From Bacilli bacterium (GTDB taxonomy: Bacteria; Bacillota_I; Bacilli_A; JAJDGJ01): a DNA stretch of 58,164 nucleotides. The position numbers and the translations under genes are program-made. Location of the stretch: assembly GCA_031289255.1 (NCBI GenBank), contig JAITPW010000084.1:1-58164 (forward strand), written 5' to 3'. This document shows, one piece after another, positions 3,439 to 54,664 of this stretch (the first letter of the stretch is position 1; the number at the start of each line of letters is the position of its first letter). The notes beneath the pieces were generated by a model. That model had not been told where the DNA came from. It searched no databases and saw nothing but the letters and a program-made list of their open reading frames with translations.

Positions 3439-3631
3439 TTCTTCTAATGTTATTAGCTTGTAATCCTTTTTCTGTTTCTGCAACATCAAAAGTAACTTCT
3501 TCATTTTCTTCTAATGATTTGTATCCATCAGAATCAATTTGGCTAAAATGAGCAAATACTTTTTGTCCATCTTCACCTTCAATAAATCCATAACCTTTTG
3601 TAGCATTAAACCATAAAACTTTTCCGTTCAT
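3434..3631 (-). CDS. cold-shock domain protein
   Basis: 65 aa with an RNP1-like KGYGFI and an RNP2-like VFAHFS. Confidence 0.95.
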   Translation of the reverse strand: MNGKVLWFNATKGYGFIEGEDGQKVFAHFSQIDSDGYKSLEENEEVTFDVAETEKGLQANNIRRK

Positions 3632-3737
3632 TGAATAGCAATTCCTTTCTTAAATAAATATCTGAAATGGCTTTACTACTCTATACTCTATACAAAATTA
3701 GTTTTAAACTATAATGCAATACCGCTATTTCTACTAG

Positions 3738-3746
3738 ATTATACCA
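3738..3746 (-). promoter_or_regulatory. extended -10 (TGGTATAAT) of the csp promoter, implying a 5' UTR of about 100 nt
   Basis: The reverse complement of 3738-3746 is TGGTATAAT. Long leaders are typical of csp genes. Confidence 0.55.
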
Positions 3747-3816
3747 TAACGAAACTACATTACTTTGTTTTTTTTTTCACAATCTATCCACTTCTAATAA
3801 TTACTTTAAAATTATC

Positions 3817-4365
3817 TTATAAGTTATAACCTAATTGATAAGCCTCTTCCAAATATTTCGTTTTGTTGATATCACCAAAACTAACCATGTTATTCACAAG
3901 TAGTTCTTTTTTACTAGTCCATCCCATATACTCATTCATTTGATGATAAACATTTCTTAATGAATCATACTCACTTTCATGAGCATTAAAACAACAACTT
4001 ATTAAATAGCTTTCTTTTATCTGTGATGGTTGCGGACTGATCTTAGGAATAAAAGGATACAATTTATCAATGACCAGTTTCATTTGTCCACTAAAGCCAA
4101 ACCAATATAAGGGACTTACTAAAACAATGACATCAGTATCAAACATCGCTTCTTTTAATAGTTCATTATCATCATCTAAAATACATGGTTTTCCTTTCGA
4201 CCAGCAGGCATTACAACCAAGGCATGGTTTTAAATTAATTTGATAAGCATTGATACTAATAACTTCATGGCCAGCATCCTTTGCACCTTTAATAAATTGA
4301 TCAGCTAATTGATTACTATTACCCTTAGGACGAGGACTACCACTTAAAACAAAAAACTTCTTCAT
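3817..4365 (-). CDS. flavodoxin-like FMN reductase / iron-sulfur flavoprotein (Isf-type)
   Basis: The likely true start is ATG 4363-4365 (AAGGTG just upstream) rather than 4425. It begins FVLSGSPRPKGNS and contains the compact cluster CLGCNACWSKGKPC (C-x2-C-x2-C-x6-C) typical of Isf proteins. Confidence 0.7.
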   Translation of the reverse strand: MKKFFVLSGSPRPKGNSNQLADQFIKGAKDAGHEVISINAYQINLKPCLGCNACWSKGKPCILDDDNELLKEAMFDTDVIVLVSPLYWFGFSGQMKLVIDKLYPFIPKISPQPSQIKESYLISCCFNAHESEYDSLRNVYHQMNEYMGWTSKKELLVNNMVSFGDINKTKYLEEAYQLGYNL

Positions 4366-37134: not shown

Positions 37135-37465
37135 TAATAATAATGATAATTACCAATTTCATCCTCGAGGGATTGTAAAATGGCATGCTTTTTCAGCTGT
37201 TGTTAGTAATGAAGAACAACTCCAAGAAGCTGTTGAAATAGAACTTTTAGATATAGAATTATTAGAAGATAAAAAAAATTATTTAGATTATCAACTTAAG
37301 CATGCTCTTAATAATAACTTAATCACAAGTGTCAGTTACTTAAAAGATAATCAAATTATCATGATGGAAGGACATATTAGTAATGTTGATTATTTCAATC
37401 GGACCCTTAATATCAATGATCATAACTTACCAATTGATAATATAATTGATATTATTATAAAGTAA
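37124..37465 (+). CDS. YolD-like protein
   Basis: About 113 aa. It overlaps the 3' end of the polymerase gene. The size, the association with a Y-family polymerase and the central W-x-AF segment fit the YolD family. Family assignment is at moderate confidence. Confidence 0.55.
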   Translation: MLNNNNNDNYQFHPRGIVKWHAFSAVVSNEEQLQEAVEIELLDIELLEDKKNYLDYQLKHALNNNLITSVSYLKDNQIIMMEGHISNVDYFNRTLNINDHNLPIDNIIDIIIK

Positions 37466-41996: not shown

Positions 41997-43271
41997 TTAT
42001 AATTTTTCAATTTTAGTAATACCACCCATATAAGGAACTAAGGCTTCAGGAATAATAACACTACCATCAGCTTGTTGGTAGTTTTCTAAAATAGCTGAGA
42101 AACATCTTCCAACAGCAACTCCTGATCCATTAAGGGTATGAACAAACTCTACTTTACCATTTTCATCTTTAAATCTTATATTAGCACGACGAGCTTGGAA
42201 ATCAAGACAATTTGAACAACTACTTATTTCACGATAAGTATCAAACCCTGGCATCCATACTTCTAAGTCATTAGTGTTTGCTGAACAAAATCCTAAATCA
42301 CCAGTCGCTAATTGCATAACACGATATGGTAATTTTAATTTTTGTAAAACTGTTTCCGCATTTGTCGTTAATAAATCCAAAGCTTCATATGAATGATCAG
42401 GGTGAGCATACATTACTAGCTCTACTTTATTAAATTGATGTTGTCTAATTAATCCTCTTGTATCGCGACCAGCTGAACCTGCCTCTGCTCTAAAACAAGG
42501 CGTATAAGCAGTAAATCTCATTGGAAAACTAGGGTTTTGAATAATTTCATCTTGATGATAGTTGGTAAGTGGTACCTCTGCTGTTGGAATTAACCAATAA
42601 TCAGTCCCTCTAACATTAAACATATCTTCTTCAAATTTTGGTAATTGTCCTGTTCCAAACATTGTCTTTGAATTAACCATAAATGGTGGAATCATTTCGA
42701 AATAACCATGCTCAGTAGTATGAAGGTCAAGCATGAAAGCAATCAAAGCTCTTTCTAATTTAGCTCCTAGTCCTTTATAAATCGCAAATCTACTTCCTGT
42801 TATCTTAGCGGCTCTTTCGAAGTCGACTATATCTAATCCTTCAGCTACTTCGTAATGTGGTTTTGCTTTAAAATCAAACTTAGTTGGTTCTTCCCATACT
42901 TTTAAGCAGACATTATGATCTTCATCACCAATTGCCACTGTTTCACGTGGAACATTAGGAGTCATTGCTAAAGCATCAAATATTCTCTTTTCAACATCAG
43001 CAATCTTAAGATCTAATTCTTTAATATCATCTCCAAATTGACCAACTTCAGCCATTAACGCCGTTGTGTCTTCACCATTTCTTTTCATTTCACCAATTTT
43101 TTTAGATTCTTCATTTCTAATACTTTTAAGTTCTTCTACTTTTTGAACAAGGACTCTTCTTTCCTCATCCCATATAACCACATCTCTTAAATAACTAAAG
43201 TCATCTCCTCTCGTATTTAATCTTTCAATAATTGTTTCGACATCTTCTCTTAATTTTTTAATATCTAACAT
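41997..43271 (-). CDS. serS: seryl-tRNA synthetase
   Basis: The start is most likely ATG 43271 ([10 protein letters not shown]) after AAGAGGGA. It contains class II aaRS motifs, including TGQLPKF. Confidence 0.95.
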
Positions 43272-43299
43272 ACAATTCCCTCTTTTCATAATTTTATAA

Positions 43300-43540
43300 T
43301 AAAAAAAGACTTATTCATCCTAAGGGACGAATAAGCCGTGGTGCCACCCAATTTTATTGTTCCACGTGAAACATGAAACAACCTTAATAATGATAACGGT
43401 TTCAGACCGAATATAGATACTTAAATATTTCCCTATATCACTCATGGGTTGATTTCAAATAATGTTATATTAGCTTCCACCAAATGCTAACTCTCTTCAA
43501 TAACTAATTATTTTACTTATCCCAATCATCGATTTACATG
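43300..43540 (-). promoter_or_regulatory. T-box riboswitch leader of serS (Ser specifier)
   Basis: On the minus strand I see an AGAGAG bulge, a distal loop TTTGGTGGAAGC, and an S-turn AAGTA. The T-box sequence AATTGGGTGGCACCACGG is the reverse complement of 43336-43353. A terminator CTTATTCGTCC-CTTA-GGATGAATAAG plus T7 lies at 43301-43335. The proposed specifier is UCA at 43450-43452, followed by A. Confidence 0.85.
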
Positions 43541-51469: not shown

Positions 51470-51580
51470 TTATTTTTTAATTATATTAAAATAATTATAA
51501 TAATACAAATATTTTAAGGGGAAAAAGTAAGAATTAATAAGTAATTAGGAATAATTAATGGTGGAAAAAGCTGTGGATAA
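51470..51580. other. oriC part 2: dnaA-dnaN spacer with DnaA boxes and an AT-rich candidate unwinding region
   Basis: TGTGGATAA at 51572-51580 is the reverse complement of the perfect box TTATCCACA. Adjacent to it, GGTGGAAAA at 51560-51568 is a TTTTCCACC-type box. The stretch 51470-51555 is almost pure A/T. Confidence 0.7.
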
Positions 51581-51582
51581 CT

Positions 51583-52929
51583 TTAAGTTTTTTTCAACAT
51601 ATTAGTTATTTCATTTATTACTTGAGCAAATTCGATATTTTTTTCATCTAATTTAATTTTTATTTTATGATAACTAGACATGATAGTTGAATGATCACGA
51701 TTACCATATAATTTACCAATTTTTTCAAAAGGAGTTTCTAATAAAGTTCTTTCTAAGTAAATGGCAATATGGCGAGGAATAGATATATTTTTTTGTCTAT
51801 TTTTACTAATTATTTGAGCTTTACTTAAATTATAATAGTTACAAACACAATCAAGAATATTTTCACTAGTAACACAAGAATTAATATTATCTAATTGATA
51901 ATCTTTAAAAGCTTCACTAACAATTTCAAGATTAATAATCTCAGGATTATCTAAATCAATTAAATAAAATAATACTCTTCTTAAAGCACCTTCTAATTCT
52001 CTAACATCTTTAGAAAAATGAGTAGCAATAAATTTGAGAGCCTCATCACTAAAGACTGTCCCAGTAGCATCAAAATAGGATAATTTATTTTGAAGAATTT
52101 TTATACTCGTTTCAAAATGAGGTGGGCTAATAGAAATACTAAGACCTTGATTAAAACGGCTTATTAAACGATCTTCTAAGCCATTTAATTTACTAGGATT
52201 GACATCAGCGGTAATAACAACTTGTTTATTATGATTAAAAAGATTATTATAAATATTAAAGAACATTTCATTACTTTTTGTTTTTTCTTTTAAAAATTGT
52301 ATATCATCAATCAATAAGACATCTAAATTACGATATTTATTATTAAAACTATCAGTATTATTAGTATTAGGATTTTGTGAAAAAGCAACATAATCAGTTA
52401 CAAATTCTTCACTAGTTACATAAAGAACTCGCATATTAGGTTTATTTTTTAATATTGAATTTCCGATAGAATGAATTAAATGCGTTTTACCTAATCCGGA
52501 AGCACCATAAATAAATAAAGGATTATATAATTGACCTGGGGTATTAGCAACCGAAATAGCAGCTTTATAAGCTTGATTGTTAGATGGTCCTGAGACAAAT
52601 AAATCAAATGAGAAATTGGTTTTTAAATTAGTCGTAATTTGATTAATTGGTGATTCACTGATAACTTTACTGGCTAGTTCAGCAGTAGTTGTAAAGATGA
52701 CCTTAAAGTTGGTTTCACTAACTTTATTAAGACTAGTTTCAATGAAAGGAAGATGGGCTTCCATATACTGCTTGGCAATAATATCATCAACGATTATATT
52801 GACGATATTACTGTTGATCGAATCAATATAGGAATCTGCAAAAAATTCATTATAAATTAAATCATCATTTATTTCTTCACGAATAATAATTAAAGTATTG
52901 GACCATAAAAGATTGATATTATCATTCAT
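51583..52929 (-). CDS. dnaA: chromosomal replication initiator protein DnaA
   Basis: 448 aa with AAA+ Walker A GASGLGKTHL, LLIDDIQF, and a C-terminal box-binding helix region (RDHSTIMSSYHKI). Confidence 0.97.
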   Translation of the reverse strand: MNDNINLLWSNTLIIIREEINDDLIYNEFFADSYIDSINSNIVNIIVDDIIAKQYMEAHLPFIETSLNKVSETNFKVIFTTTAELASKVISESPINQITTNLKTNFSFDLFVSGPSNNQAYKAAISVANTPGQLYNPLFIYGASGLGKTHLIHSIGNSILKNKPNMRVLYVTSEEFVTDYVAFSQNPNTNNTDSFNNKYRNLDVLLIDDIQFLKEKTKSNEMFFNIYNNLFNHNKQVVITADVNPSKLNGLEDRLISRFNQGLSISISPPHFETSIKILQNKLSYFDATGTVFSDEALKFIATHFSKDVRELEGALRRVLFYLIDLDNPEIINLEIVSEAFKDYQLDNINSCVTSENILDCVCNYYNLSKAQIISKNRQKNISIPRHIAIYLERTLLETPFEKIGKLYGNRDHSTIMSSYHKIKIKLDEKNIEFAQVINEITNMLKKT

Positions 52930-52991
52930 AATTTATCACTTCCTTCACTAATAAATGGGTTAGAATGTACTTGGTATTTTAAATTATAAAG

Positions 52992-53296
52992 TATTCCACA
53001 ATAATAATCTATAATAAAAAGGATAAGCAAAAGTATTCCACAATATTATCCACAGCGATTAACAAGTTAAATAGGGAATAATAGATTCTTTTCCACATAA
53101 AAAGAAAATATTTATGAACATGTTAACATTAGAAAAAAAGTTTTCCACACATAAATGTGGAAAAAATAATATTATCATTATCATGAGAATAATAAATGGG
53201 GATAAAAAGAGTGATTATAAAGGGCTGAAATAATAGTTATCCACACTTTCCACAATTAATTATTAACATAATTATGGATTAAAAGTTTTATCAACA
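52992..53296. other. oriC part 1 / dnaA promoter region: cluster of DnaA boxes
   Basis: Perfect TTATCCACA boxes lie at 53046-53054 and 53237-53245. TTTTCCACA lies at 53089-53097 and 53141-53149, with an inverted partner TGTGGAAAA at 53156-53164. TATTCCACA lies at 52992-53000 and 53034-53042, CTTTCCACA at 53246-53254, and TTATCAACA at 53288-53296. Confidence 0.85.
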
Positions 53297-53355
53297 AGCT
53301 TAAATAGAATAGGAAAAGATAAATTATCTAATTAAGCGTTTTTTAAATTAGTAAG

Positions 53356-53364
53356 TGTTATAAT
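53356..53364 (+). promoter_or_regulatory. extended -10 element (TGTTATAAT) of the cysK leader transcript
   Basis: TGnTATAAT lies about 30 nt upstream of the leader-ORF start. I see no good -35 element. Confidence 0.5.
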
Positions 53365-53392
53365 AGGGAAAATTTAAACAGGAGTGTTTATT

Positions 53393-53452
53393 GTGAAATT
53401 ATTATTTTTAAATAATAATACTTGTTGTTGCTATAATCTATCTAAGTGGTGA
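53393..53452 (+). CDS. candidate Cys-rich leader peptide (19 codons, MKLLFLNNNTCCCYNLSKW)
   Basis: Not in the ORF track. AGGAG (53380-53384) lies 8 nt before GTG 53393. Codons TGT TGT TGC occupy 53423-53431 and TGA is at 53450-53452. The ORF lies inside the alternative-hairpin region upstream of cysK. Confidence 0.6.
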   Translation: MKLLFLNNNTCCCYNLSKW

Positions 53453-53487
53453 TTATAGAATTTTTTAATGTTAAAACATATCTTAAA

Positions 53488-53520
53488 GATCACTATTTTT
53501 AATAATAGTGGTCTTTTTTT
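53488..53520 (+). terminator. intrinsic terminator (attenuator) between the leader ORF and cysK
   Basis: GATCACTATT-TTTAAT-AATAGTGGTC forms a 10-bp stem with one G-U pair, followed by TTTTTTT (53514-53520). Confidence 0.75.
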
Positions 53521-53629
53521 AAGGAGTAAGAAAAATGAATAATTTTAGATTAAGACTCTGTCTTAAGCCCATTGGGCGTATCAATAGTTAAATCATTATC
53601 TAAAATAATAGAAAATAGAGGAAATTAAA

Positions 53630-54547
53630 ATGTTAGTAAATAAAATAGAAGAATTAATTGGGAATACTCCCATTATTAAATTAAATAAATTAGTTGATGA
53701 TAATAGTGCTGAAGTTTATGTCAAATTGGAAAGTTTTAATTTAACAGGCAATATAAAAATTAGACCGGCTTATTATATGATTAATGATGTTTTGCAGAAA
53801 GGTATATTAAGTAAGGATAATATCATTGTTGAACCAACTAGTGGTAATACAGGAATTGCTTTAGCTTATATTGCGAACTTGTTAGGAATTGAAATATATT
53901 TAATTATGCCTGAAACAATGAGTATTGAAAGAAGACAAATTATGGAAGCTTATCATGCTAAAATAATTTTAACAGAAGGTAAATTAGGAATGAAAGGGGC
54001 AATTGAAAAAGCTAATGAATTAGCTCAAGATCATAAATATGTCCTTTTACAACAGTTTAATAATCCTGCTAATACCTTGTCACATTATGAAACAACGGCT
54101 CAGGAAATAATTAATGATTTCAATAATCTTGATGCTTTCATCGCAGGAGTTGGGACCGGTGGTACTATTACTGGAATTGGAAAAAAATTAAAGGAAAATT
54201 ATGATAATATTAAAGTAGTAGCAGTTGAACCACAAGAATCAGCTGTCTTAAGTGGTAATAAAAGTGGACCTCATAAAATTCAAGGTATTGGAGCAGGATT
54301 TATTCCAGAAATATTAGATCTAAGTATCGTTGATGAAGTAGTTAGTGTTGCTTCTGATGAGGTCGTAGCATTTGTAAAAGAAATATATTTGCAAGAAGGT
54401 TTATTTCTTGGTATTTCTTCAGCAGCTAATATATTAGCTGCTCTACAAATTGCGAAACAATTAGGTAAAAATAAGAAAGTATTAACTATTGCCCCAGATG
54501 GTGGTGATAAATATTTAAGTAATAATATTTTTAATTATGATGAGTAA
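53630..54547 (+). CDS. cysK: cysteine synthase A / O-acetylserine sulfhydrylase family PLP enzyme
   Basis: 305 aa. It has the PLP-Lys region LTGNIKIR, the Asn loop PTSGNTGIALA, the phosphate loop GVGTGGTITG, and GISSAAN. Confidence 0.88.
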   Translation: MLVNKIEELIGNTPIIKLNKLVDDNSAEVYVKLESFNLTGNIKIRPAYYMINDVLQKGILSKDNIIVEPTSGNTGIALAYIANLLGIEIYLIMPETMSIERRQIMEAYHAKIILTEGKLGMKGAIEKANELAQDHKYVLLQQFNNPANTLSHYETTAQEIINDFNNLDAFIAGVGTGGTITGIGKKLKENYDNIKVVAVEPQESAVLSGNKSGPHKIQGIGAGFIPEILDLSIVDEVVSVASDEVVAFVKEIYLQEGLFLGISSAANILAALQIAKQLGKNKKVLTIAPDGGDKYLSNNIFNYDE

Positions 54548-54664
54548 GTAATTTAATAAAATTTTTAATAAATAGAAAAGGGCATGATTTATACTCTTTT
54601 CTATTATCTTTTAAGAGTATTTATAATAGTTTAATTTATTTAGAAAAAGCGTATAATAATAAAT

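Follow-up and report, generated by a model that had tools for sequence, protein, structure and literature searches.

In the classical leader-peptide attenuators of Escherichia coli (trp, his, leu, thr and pheA) a short open reading frame (ORF) led by a Shine-Dalgarno (SD) sequence contains tandem codons for the amino acid of the regulated pathway, and four RNA segments form the mutually exclusive pairings 1:2, 2:3 and 3:4, the last of which is an intrinsic terminator that includes a U-run. By default these leaders terminate, and a ribosome stalled on the regulatory codons hides segment 1. We analyzed the region upstream of cysK in a 58,164-nucleotide (nt) stretch of DNA from a Bacilli bacterium (contig JAITPW010000084.1, assembly GCA_031289255.1; the whole stretch is referred to below as the window) and observed the same layout, the ribosome footprint being modelled. 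The cysK leader differs from the classical attenuators in the amino acid that it would sense, which is cysteine, in having no similarity to an Rfam leader and in carrying a second Cys mini-ORF after the terminator. We consider it likely that a 19-codon mini-ORF in this leader (sORF1) and the hairpins around its 3' end together act as a Cys-tRNA-sensing, ribosome-mediated transcription attenuator which controls cysK. The first-pass annotation of this DNA had proposed such an attenuator, and conservation, co-variation, geometry and gene context now lend that proposal computational support. All five defining features of leader-peptide attenuators which can be tested on sequence are present, comprising a short ORF with its own ribosome binding site (RBS) between promoter and structural gene, tandem Cys codons, an intrinsic terminator between this ORF and the structural gene, a modelled stalled ribosome which hides segment 1 and not segment 2, and competition between terminator, antiterminator and anti-antiterminator. 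As cysK (with cysE in relatives) lies downstream, the sensed amino acid fits the pathway. From this arrangement we infer leader translation, stalling at the Cys codons, kinetic coupling of ribosome and polymerase, and read-through which responds to cysteine.

Leader peptides with runs of Cys residues have been predicted upstream of the cys operons of Mycobacterium, Propionibacterium and Bifidobacterium, where no terminators were found (Seliverstov et al. 2005, PMC1262725), and it has been shown experimentally for mycobacterial polycysteine leaderless short ORFs (the 'Cys ribulon') that ribosome pausing relieves sequestration of the downstream RBS (Canestrari et al. 2020, bioRxiv 10.1101/834739). 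The cysK leader has in common with the Cys ribulon at least two consecutive Cys codons, by which Cys-tRNA would be sensed through pausing and expression of cysteine genes raised. However, the mycobacterial ORFs have neither a 5' untranslated region (UTR) nor an SD sequence, the one which was dissected acts on translation and no conserved terminators accompany them, whereas the cysK leader has an SD sequence, a 5' UTR and a terminator/antiterminator, so that it is not a leaderless mRNA. Nor does the unmasking of an RBS apply, as the cysK SD sequence is mostly unpaired in all modelled states. Another parallel is uORFC-8-2 of Rhodobacterales cysS, a predicted upstream ORF (uORF) with two tandem Cys codons and an intrinsic terminator after it (Brewer et al. 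2021, PMC8632094). This Cys-Cys uORF with its terminator has likewise been read, on computational grounds, as Cys-tRNA-responsive ribosome-mediated attenuation, but it precedes cysS in alpha-proteobacteria, its Cys codons 14–15 lie inside the first stem and there is no second mini-ORF. In the cysK leader the Cys codons are numbers 11–13 and lie immediately 5' of segment 1, and we therefore do not assign it to that family.

Leader peptides were stated in 2010 to have been demonstrated in Proteobacteria and Actinobacteria only, by authors who themselves reported His leader peptides from Bacillus (Naville and Gautheret 2010, PMC2965389). Our literature search revealed a Cys leader-peptide attenuator neither for cysK nor for any Bacillota gene, although subscription journals were outside its coverage and absence from it is no proof. 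The earlier claim that no Cys-codon attenuator had been described for cysK in Bacillota is thus in agreement with the literature, while the concept itself is already known elsewhere. Bacillota is the textbook phylum of T-boxes, riboswitches and CymR for amino-acid and aminoacyl-tRNA genes, with Cys T-boxes, S-box riboswitches and CymR controlling its cysteine genes, and leader-peptide attenuation of biosynthetic genes is considered rare in it. These regulators share with the cysK leader both the phylum and the task of matching cysK/cysE to the supply of cysteine or Cys-tRNA. T-boxes are also terminator/antiterminator switches, but there the tRNA binds the RNA, whereas in the cysK leader it would be the ribosome which reads charging.

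What is new here is the combination of cysteine and cysK in a phylum in which the mechanism is rare, with a second Cys mini-ORF besides. If the reading is true, the ribosome itself reads the Cys-tRNA supply for cysK(-cysE) in a small clade of uncultured, very AT-rich Bacilli. The leader would be the first candidate for a full terminator/antiterminator switch before a cysteine biosynthesis gene, as control is translational in the mycobacterial Cys leaders examined to date and the sole other terminator-type Cys uORF is the cysS prediction. At about 150 nt, with separable parts and simple predictions, it would make an easy experimental model, and it illustrates that mini-ORFs overlooked by gene callers can hold key regulatory information.

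Conservation and alternative folding of the cysK leader

The features of the leader were read directly from the sequence and all lie on the forward strand. An extended -10 promoter element without a good -35, TGTTATAAT (53356–53364), is followed by the SD sequence AGGAG (53380–53384), which lies 8 nt before GTG 53393 and leaves about 20 nt of 5' UTR plus the SD sequence between the -10 element and the start codon. From this GTG, sORF1 (53393–53452) runs through 19 codons to a TGA (53450–53452) and encodes (M)KLLFLNNNTCCCYNLSKW, with the putative regulatory codons TGT TGT TGC (Cys11–13) at 53423–53431. Segment 1, CTATAATC (53431–53438), is the 5' strand of the anti-antiterminator 1:2 and forms a perfect helix of 8 base pairs (bp) with 53451–53458. 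Segment 2, AAGTGGTGATTATAG (53444–53458), contains the sORF1 stop codon and can pair either with segment 1 through 53451–53458 or with segment 3 through 53444–53454. Segment 3, GATCACTATTT (53488–53498), belongs to a tract (53485–53498) which serves both as the 5' arm of the terminator (53485–53497) and as the antiterminator partner of segment 2 (53488–53498), and segment 4, AATAGTGGTC (53504–53513), runs into a T7 tract (53514–53520), the 3' arm of the terminator being 53504–53516. Downstream, the cysK SD sequence AGAGG (53617–53621) is located 8 nt before ATG 53630 and is predicted to be sequestered in no state, and the regulated gene itself (53630–54547) encodes cysteine synthase A (O-acetylserine sulfhydrylase; TIGR01139, 391.6 bits against a cut-off of 350.95). 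This direct reading recovered every element which the first-pass annotation had named, from the extended -10, AGGAG, the GTG, the Cys codons and the TGA to the four segments and the T7 run.

Homologous leaders were then compared. The nearest relatives of the window CysK are 64–68% identical to it and all come from metagenome assemblies; those which bear a leader are 65–68% identical and belong to uncultured low-GC Bacilli in which the operon is cysK-cysE (CysE TIGR01172). Six further distinct cysK leaders were obtained (L004, L002, L013, L014, L137 and L138), with L016 a one-base variant of L004 and L013 (NCBI GCA_039809825.1) a relative of L002. Five leaders are complete, namely those of the window, L004, L002, L013 and L014, while L137 and L138 are cut at the 5' end. 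In all five the sORF1 frame is open and SD-led and Cys-Cys occupies codons 11–12, and at least two consecutive Cys codons are present in all six leaders which include this part. The peptides are (M)KLLFLNNNTCCCYNLSKW in the window, MSILNNNVNTCCCHNCNKSDYVF in L004, MFNKLNNLNTCCFHNCNNSDYGFWCL in L002, MFNNLNNLNTCCFHNCNNSDYGFWYV in L013 and MFTNKFNNTFCCHIT in L014, and the end of the L138 peptide, whose 5' part is missing, reads ..NTLCCHIT. The N-terminal codons, C-terminal tails and stop positions vary (length 15–26 amino acids) and the frame stays open throughout. An open frame with a fixed Cys-Cys position in spite of diverged flanks is what would be expected of a translated leader, and other accounts of it are difficult to find. 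The H/Y-N which is conserved after the Cys run corresponds to segment 1 itself. The mini-ORF, its Cys run, the terminator and the alternative pairings are therefore kept in relatives, with compensatory changes, and the comparison of cysK upstream regions which had been proposed gives a positive result.

The mechanically made ORF list opens the sORF1 frame at an earlier GTG (53384). We regard GTG 53393 as the better start because the ATG of the four other complete leaders sits exactly there, at equal distance from the SD sequence (AGGAGTG-N6-ATG in homologues, AGGAGTG-N6-RTG overall), which favors the start that had been proposed. Elements resembling a -10 were present at a similar distance 5' of the leader SD sequence in L013 (TGTTATAGT) and L002 (TGTTACAGT). 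A promoter consensus scan needs a -35, and for this reason did not list the element at 53356–53364.

The occurrence of such an ORF by chance was assessed with shuffles of the 300-nt upstream region. An SD-led ORF of at most 35 codons containing Cys-Cys-Cys appeared in 2 of 10,000 shuffles, and one containing Cys-Cys in 5 of 1,000. Cysteine makes up 1.0% of residues in the long ORFs of the window, and Cys-Cys-Cys is absent from all 17,416 of those residues. Elsewhere in the window, the sole other SD-led ORF of at most 40 codons with consecutive Cys codons (MACFFSCC, 37180–37206, forward strand) is situated between convergent genes and probably arose by chance.

The alternative pairings were found in every leader. 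A hairpin with a U-run is present in 7/7 (-9.3 to -14.6 kcal/mol), as is a 2:3 duplex of comparable energy (-9.3 to -13.6 kcal/mol). When the 5' arm of the terminator was compared with the 70 nt upstream, its best partner was segment 2 in all seven leaders, with duplexes of -9.5 to -13.6 kcal/mol, a result matched by 0–25 of 1,000 dinucleotide shuffles; in the window this best duplex falls exactly on segment 2 and was matched by 7 of 1,000. The leaders are of two sequence types. Type 1 (window, L014, L137 and L138) has GUGAUU in segment 2, (A/G)AUCAC in segment 3 and GUGGUC or GUGAUU in segment 4, and type 2 (L004, L016, L002 and L013) has GCGAUU, (A/G)GUCGC and GCGGCU, respectively, from which it follows that one position changes jointly in segments 2, 3 and 4.

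MAFFT did not align the natural leaders correctly (A1) over the variable linker that joins segment 2 to segment 3, and pairs were counted on a composite alignment (A2) from which this linker had been removed. On A2 the terminator had 98.5% of cells paired, against 29–68% in slid controls, with three pairs showing compensatory changes, and its co-variation score was reached by 0 of 500 shuffles, a control which ignores relatedness. The antiterminator was 88.7% paired (31–50% when slid). Its column pair 34:54, which joins segments 2 and 3, reads CG in four sequences and UA in three; with column 71, the second partner of column 54, the pair is GC (four sequences) or AU (three), which amounts to a three-way change across segments 2, 3 and 4. 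The 1:2 helix was 88% paired (20–54% when slid) with two compensatory pairs, and since the inner half of this helix is offset by a one-base bulge in L014 and L138, the column counts come out too low. The mutually exclusive pairings 1:2, 2:3 and 3:4 which had been folded by hand are thus present in the window, and segment 2 and both terminator arms change together in its relatives. As a separate observation, L016 (597–640) differs from L004 (3787–3830) solely by AAAAGC to AAATGC in segment 2, by which a Ser codon becomes a Cys codon, the fifth, and one pair of the 2:3 helix is weakened.

Folding of the free leader (53365–53525) gave a minimum free energy (MFE) of -34.7 kcal/mol (z = -3.8 against dinucleotide shuffles) with both the 1:2 hairpin and the terminator in the structure. 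Within this span the 1:2 helix contributes -6.9 kcal/mol, and the 3:4 helix, which extends to 13 bp with flanking A-U pairs around a 6-nt loop and is followed by U7, contributes -14.4 kcal/mol. The 2:3 helix has -7.8 kcal/mol, or -10.8 kcal/mol with its inner stem. In the comparison of energies which the earlier annotation had proposed, the best fold with 1:2 and 3:4 reached -34.4 kcal/mol and that with 2:3 enforced -24.0 kcal/mol. The free-RNA MFE likewise contained 1:2 plus the terminator in 6/6 full leaders, and termination is therefore the thermodynamic default. When folding was limited to the RNA that emerges 3' of a ribosome held up at the Cys codons and that stops short of segment 4, the 2:3 fold was obtained (-10.8 kcal/mol), so that in these models the antiterminator can be reached kinetically as an alternative, much as in the trp leader. 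A simple terminator scan which requires at least three G-C pairs missed the cysK leader hairpin for that reason only.

Ribosome occupancy was modelled with a footprint that extends from -15 to +12, counted from the first base of the codon in the A site. When that codon is the last Cys of the run, the ribosome covers the whole of segment 1 (8/8 to 9/9 nt) but none (0 nt) of the part of segment 2 that enters the antiterminator, and this holds in 6/6 leaders.

Taken together, these features suggest the following mechanism. Transcription would start a few bases 3' of the extended -10 element at 53356–53364, and a ribosome would load at AGGAG/GTG 53393 and translate the 19-codon leader. With Cys-tRNA plentiful, it would pass Cys11–13 and reach the TGA in segment 2, where it would either occupy segment 2 or let 1:2 form behind it; segment 3 would then be free for segment 4, and the polymerase would terminate at U7 to leave a leader RNA of about 150 nt. 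With Cys-tRNA scarce, the ribosome would stall with a Cys codon in the A site, hiding segment 1 and exposing segment 2, which would pair with segment 3 as soon as that is made, so that the terminator is blocked and transcription reads through into cysK (cysK-cysE in relatives). More speculatively, a second mini-ORF on the read-through transcript, sORF2, would probably add a further Cys-dependent layer after termination.

Several observations weigh against this reading. With a ribosome masked on the Cys codons the terminator is still favored at equilibrium in all leaders but L004, from which it follows that the switch must be kinetic, as in the trp leader. The earlier proposal that segment 2 is covered once the ribosome has reached the stop codon fits the window, L014 and L138, where coverage is complete, and largely L004 (7/10 nt), but does not apply to L002 and L013, in which the stop lies beyond segment 2 and 1:2 must re-form behind the ribosome. 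In L004, L002 and L013 an extra Cys codon lies in segment 1, and a stall there part-covers segment 2. The start codon in the window is GTG and not ATG. The seven leaders represent about five lineages, and the co-variation accordingly rests on few independent events. Finally, two somewhat more distant cysK-cysE loci, L011 (CysK 64% identical) and L012 (61%), have no such leader, and the attenuator is therefore limited to a narrow clade. Upstream of cysK in L011 there is a 490-nt AT-rich region (3509–4000) without an Rfam match, and in L012 cysK begins 8 nt after an FAD-oxidase gene (3992–4001).

Wider searches yielded no additional leaders. A scan of GTDB genomes with window-specific CysK peptides returned one locus only, unrelated and 23% identical. 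The pattern AATACTTKYTGTTKYYATA matched 120 loci in JGI metagenomes, none with a leader-like ORF, terminator or downstream cysK, and these are thus chance matches.

Other explanations for the leader

The hairpins might instead form an attenuator, or a leaky constitutive terminator, that answers to some factor other than translation (for example a tRNA, a small ligand or an RNA-binding protein), with the Cys mini-ORF an incidental outcome of constraints on the RNA sequence; we consider this improbable. RNA pairing does explain part of the peptide conservation, as the H/Y-N codons are segment 1, and the T/G-rich Cys codons could be kept for a 5' helix with the SD region. However, the SD sequence, the start, the open frame and the 10-codon distance to Cys-Cys are all kept while the intervening codons diverge, the 5' helix is as good in 71–458 of 2,000 shuffles, no riboswitch or T-box of Rfam matched, the regulated genes make cysteine and the ribosome footprint fits 6/6 leaders. 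Searching 52900–53700 against Rfam at E-values up to 10 gave noise only, far below gathering scores and with no T-box or S-box, and a gathering-level scan of eight related loci gave no leader match; a T-box (RF00230), an S-box and other Rfam families were rejected for the cysK leader on these grounds. A further alternative, to which we give slightly less credence still, is that control falls mainly on cysK translation or mRNA stability, as in the mycobacterial polycysteine ORFs, through a stall at sORF1 or sORF2. An SD-led sORF2 with a conserved Cys between the terminator and cysK in 6/7 leaders would suit it, and the experimentally established precedent for a Cys-codon leader is translational (Canestrari et al., bioRxiv 10.1101/834739). 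On the other hand, the cysK SD sequence is predicted to be sequestered in no leader, and masking of sORF2 was without consistent effect; a strong, conserved and co-varying intrinsic terminator and antiterminator are present, and L138 has the attenuator without sORF2. Translational attenuation by sequestration of the cysK SD sequence was rejected as the main mechanism by folding, and translational control would more plausibly supplement the attenuator than replace it.

It is very unlikely that sORF1 is a functional Cys-rich micropeptide (for example a metal-binding peptide or the precursor of a modified one) or a nascent-peptide arrest leader for a drug or another signal. In favor of such a role, the peptides share a conserved N-T-C-C-(C)-H/Y motif, but the length of 15–26 amino acids and both termini are free to vary, the stop codon moves, there are no modification or export genes nearby (the neighbors being dnaA, the probable replication origin and mfd) and, immediately before cysK or cysK-cysE, the ORF overlaps a terminator and hairpins which exclude one another. 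The Cys-tRNA-sensing transcription attenuator accordingly remains our preferred reading of the leader.

The 5' helix mentioned above was also looked at in its own right. The sORF1 SD region AAACAGGAG can pair with the Cys-codon tract ACUUGUUGUU (window 53377–53432), and analogous pairings between SD region and Cys tract (AACAAC/GUUGUU, AGAAAG/CUUUCU) occur in L004, L002, L013 and L014. Such a helix might limit repeated ribosome loading. Although it is present in every MFE structure, shuffles equal it in 4–23% of cases, and it was rejected as a conserved element.

A second mini-ORF after the terminator

Directly after the T-run of the terminator there is another SD sequence, AAGGAG (53521–53526), which precedes a mini-ORF, sORF2 (53535–53591; MNNFRLRLCLKPIGRINS), with ATG 53535, a Cys codon TGT at 53559–53561 and TAA at 53589–53591. 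The first-pass annotation had overlooked this ORF. Counted from the first base of this Cys codon, a hairpin, GCCC-ATT-GGGC (53567–53577), starts 8 nt further on. An SD-led sORF2 was found in 6/7 leaders, with a Cys codon at codon 7–9 and with GGAGG or GGAG likewise following the T-run in L004, L002, L013, L014 and L137; it is deleted in L138. The peptides are MFLKKVCILPIGRFRKIKN in L004, MFVKKVCLWPNRAKLNN in L002, MFVKKVCLWPNRAKL in L013, MKDNKLCL in L137 and MILLTKGCCS in L014. A GCCC-N3-4-GGGC stem with the same spacing and a variable loop is present in the window, L137, L004, L002 and L013. In L137 the sORF2 stop precedes the hairpin, which is thus outside the ORF and conserved as RNA or DNA and not as peptide. 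L014 has no hairpin but two Cys codons in sORF2. The combination of Cys codon and hairpin was unique to the cysK leader among all loci examined, and a search for the sORF2 motif in viral contigs gave two chance matches in unrelated contexts.

The GCCC hairpin was considered as a second terminator and rejected, having 4 bp only and no U-tract after it. Folding of the region from the terminator to cysK, either free or with a ribosome masked on sORF2, gave no conserved sequestration of the cysK SD sequence, and masking on the sORF2 Cys codon caused no consistent change in the accessibility of that SD sequence.

We tentatively suggest, as a possibility which we hold with much less confidence than the attenuator itself, that the cysK leader is a two-stage cysteine sensor with two ribosome-read mini-ORFs in series, in which sORF1 gates the terminator and sORF2 acts after it. 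In such a scheme the hairpin, which starts 5 nt 3' of the sORF2 Cys codon, would lie at the mRNA entry site when Cys is in the A site, and sORF2 would act on read-through transcripts only, where it might tune the stability or translation of cysK mRNA. A hairpin and a second Cys codon could be interchangeable means of prolonging the stall, which would fit L014 with its two Cys codons and no hairpin. Stall-induced stabilization of mRNA is known from the erm leaders of Bacillus, and by analogy one may speculate, in keeping with homeostasis, that a ribosome stalled on sORF2 protects or activates the read-through cysK mRNA. As far as we found, the literature holds no description of a tandem arrangement of attenuator and then stall-ORF for an amino-acid gene, and sORF2 offers a way to ask whether bacterial leaders hold serial ribosome checkpoints.

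Genomic setting of the leader

The window organism, which is uncultured, has a G+C content of about 27% and belongs to Bacilli near Erysipelotrichales; its GyrB is 63–75% identical to those of metagenome-assembled genomes whose labels read Bacilli, Erysipelotrichaceae or Erysipelotrichales. The long ORFs read through under the standard code, and TGA therefore serves as a stop codon. A gathering-level Rfam scan of the whole window matched a T-box before serS only (43320–43538, reverse strand, 129 bits against a gathering score of 93), with serS at 41997–43289 (TIGR00414, 521 bits). The lineage therefore has T-boxes, yet none is used at cysK.

To the left of the leader, dnaA (51583–52929) and dnaN lie on the reverse strand. 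Seven sites resembling DnaA boxes (TTATCCACA, at most one mismatch) are clustered at 53046–53296 and include an inverted pair at 53141–53164, with another such site at 51572–51580, and the sign of the GC skew changes between dnaA and the cysK leader. The region 53046–53296 is probably oriC and abuts the leader promoter. To the right of cysK lies mfd. Unlike in most relatives with enough downstream sequence, cysK in the window is not followed by cysE; the gene is separated from mfd by a short AT-rich spacer (54548–54664) which contains an AGAAAAG...CTTTTCT inverted repeat.

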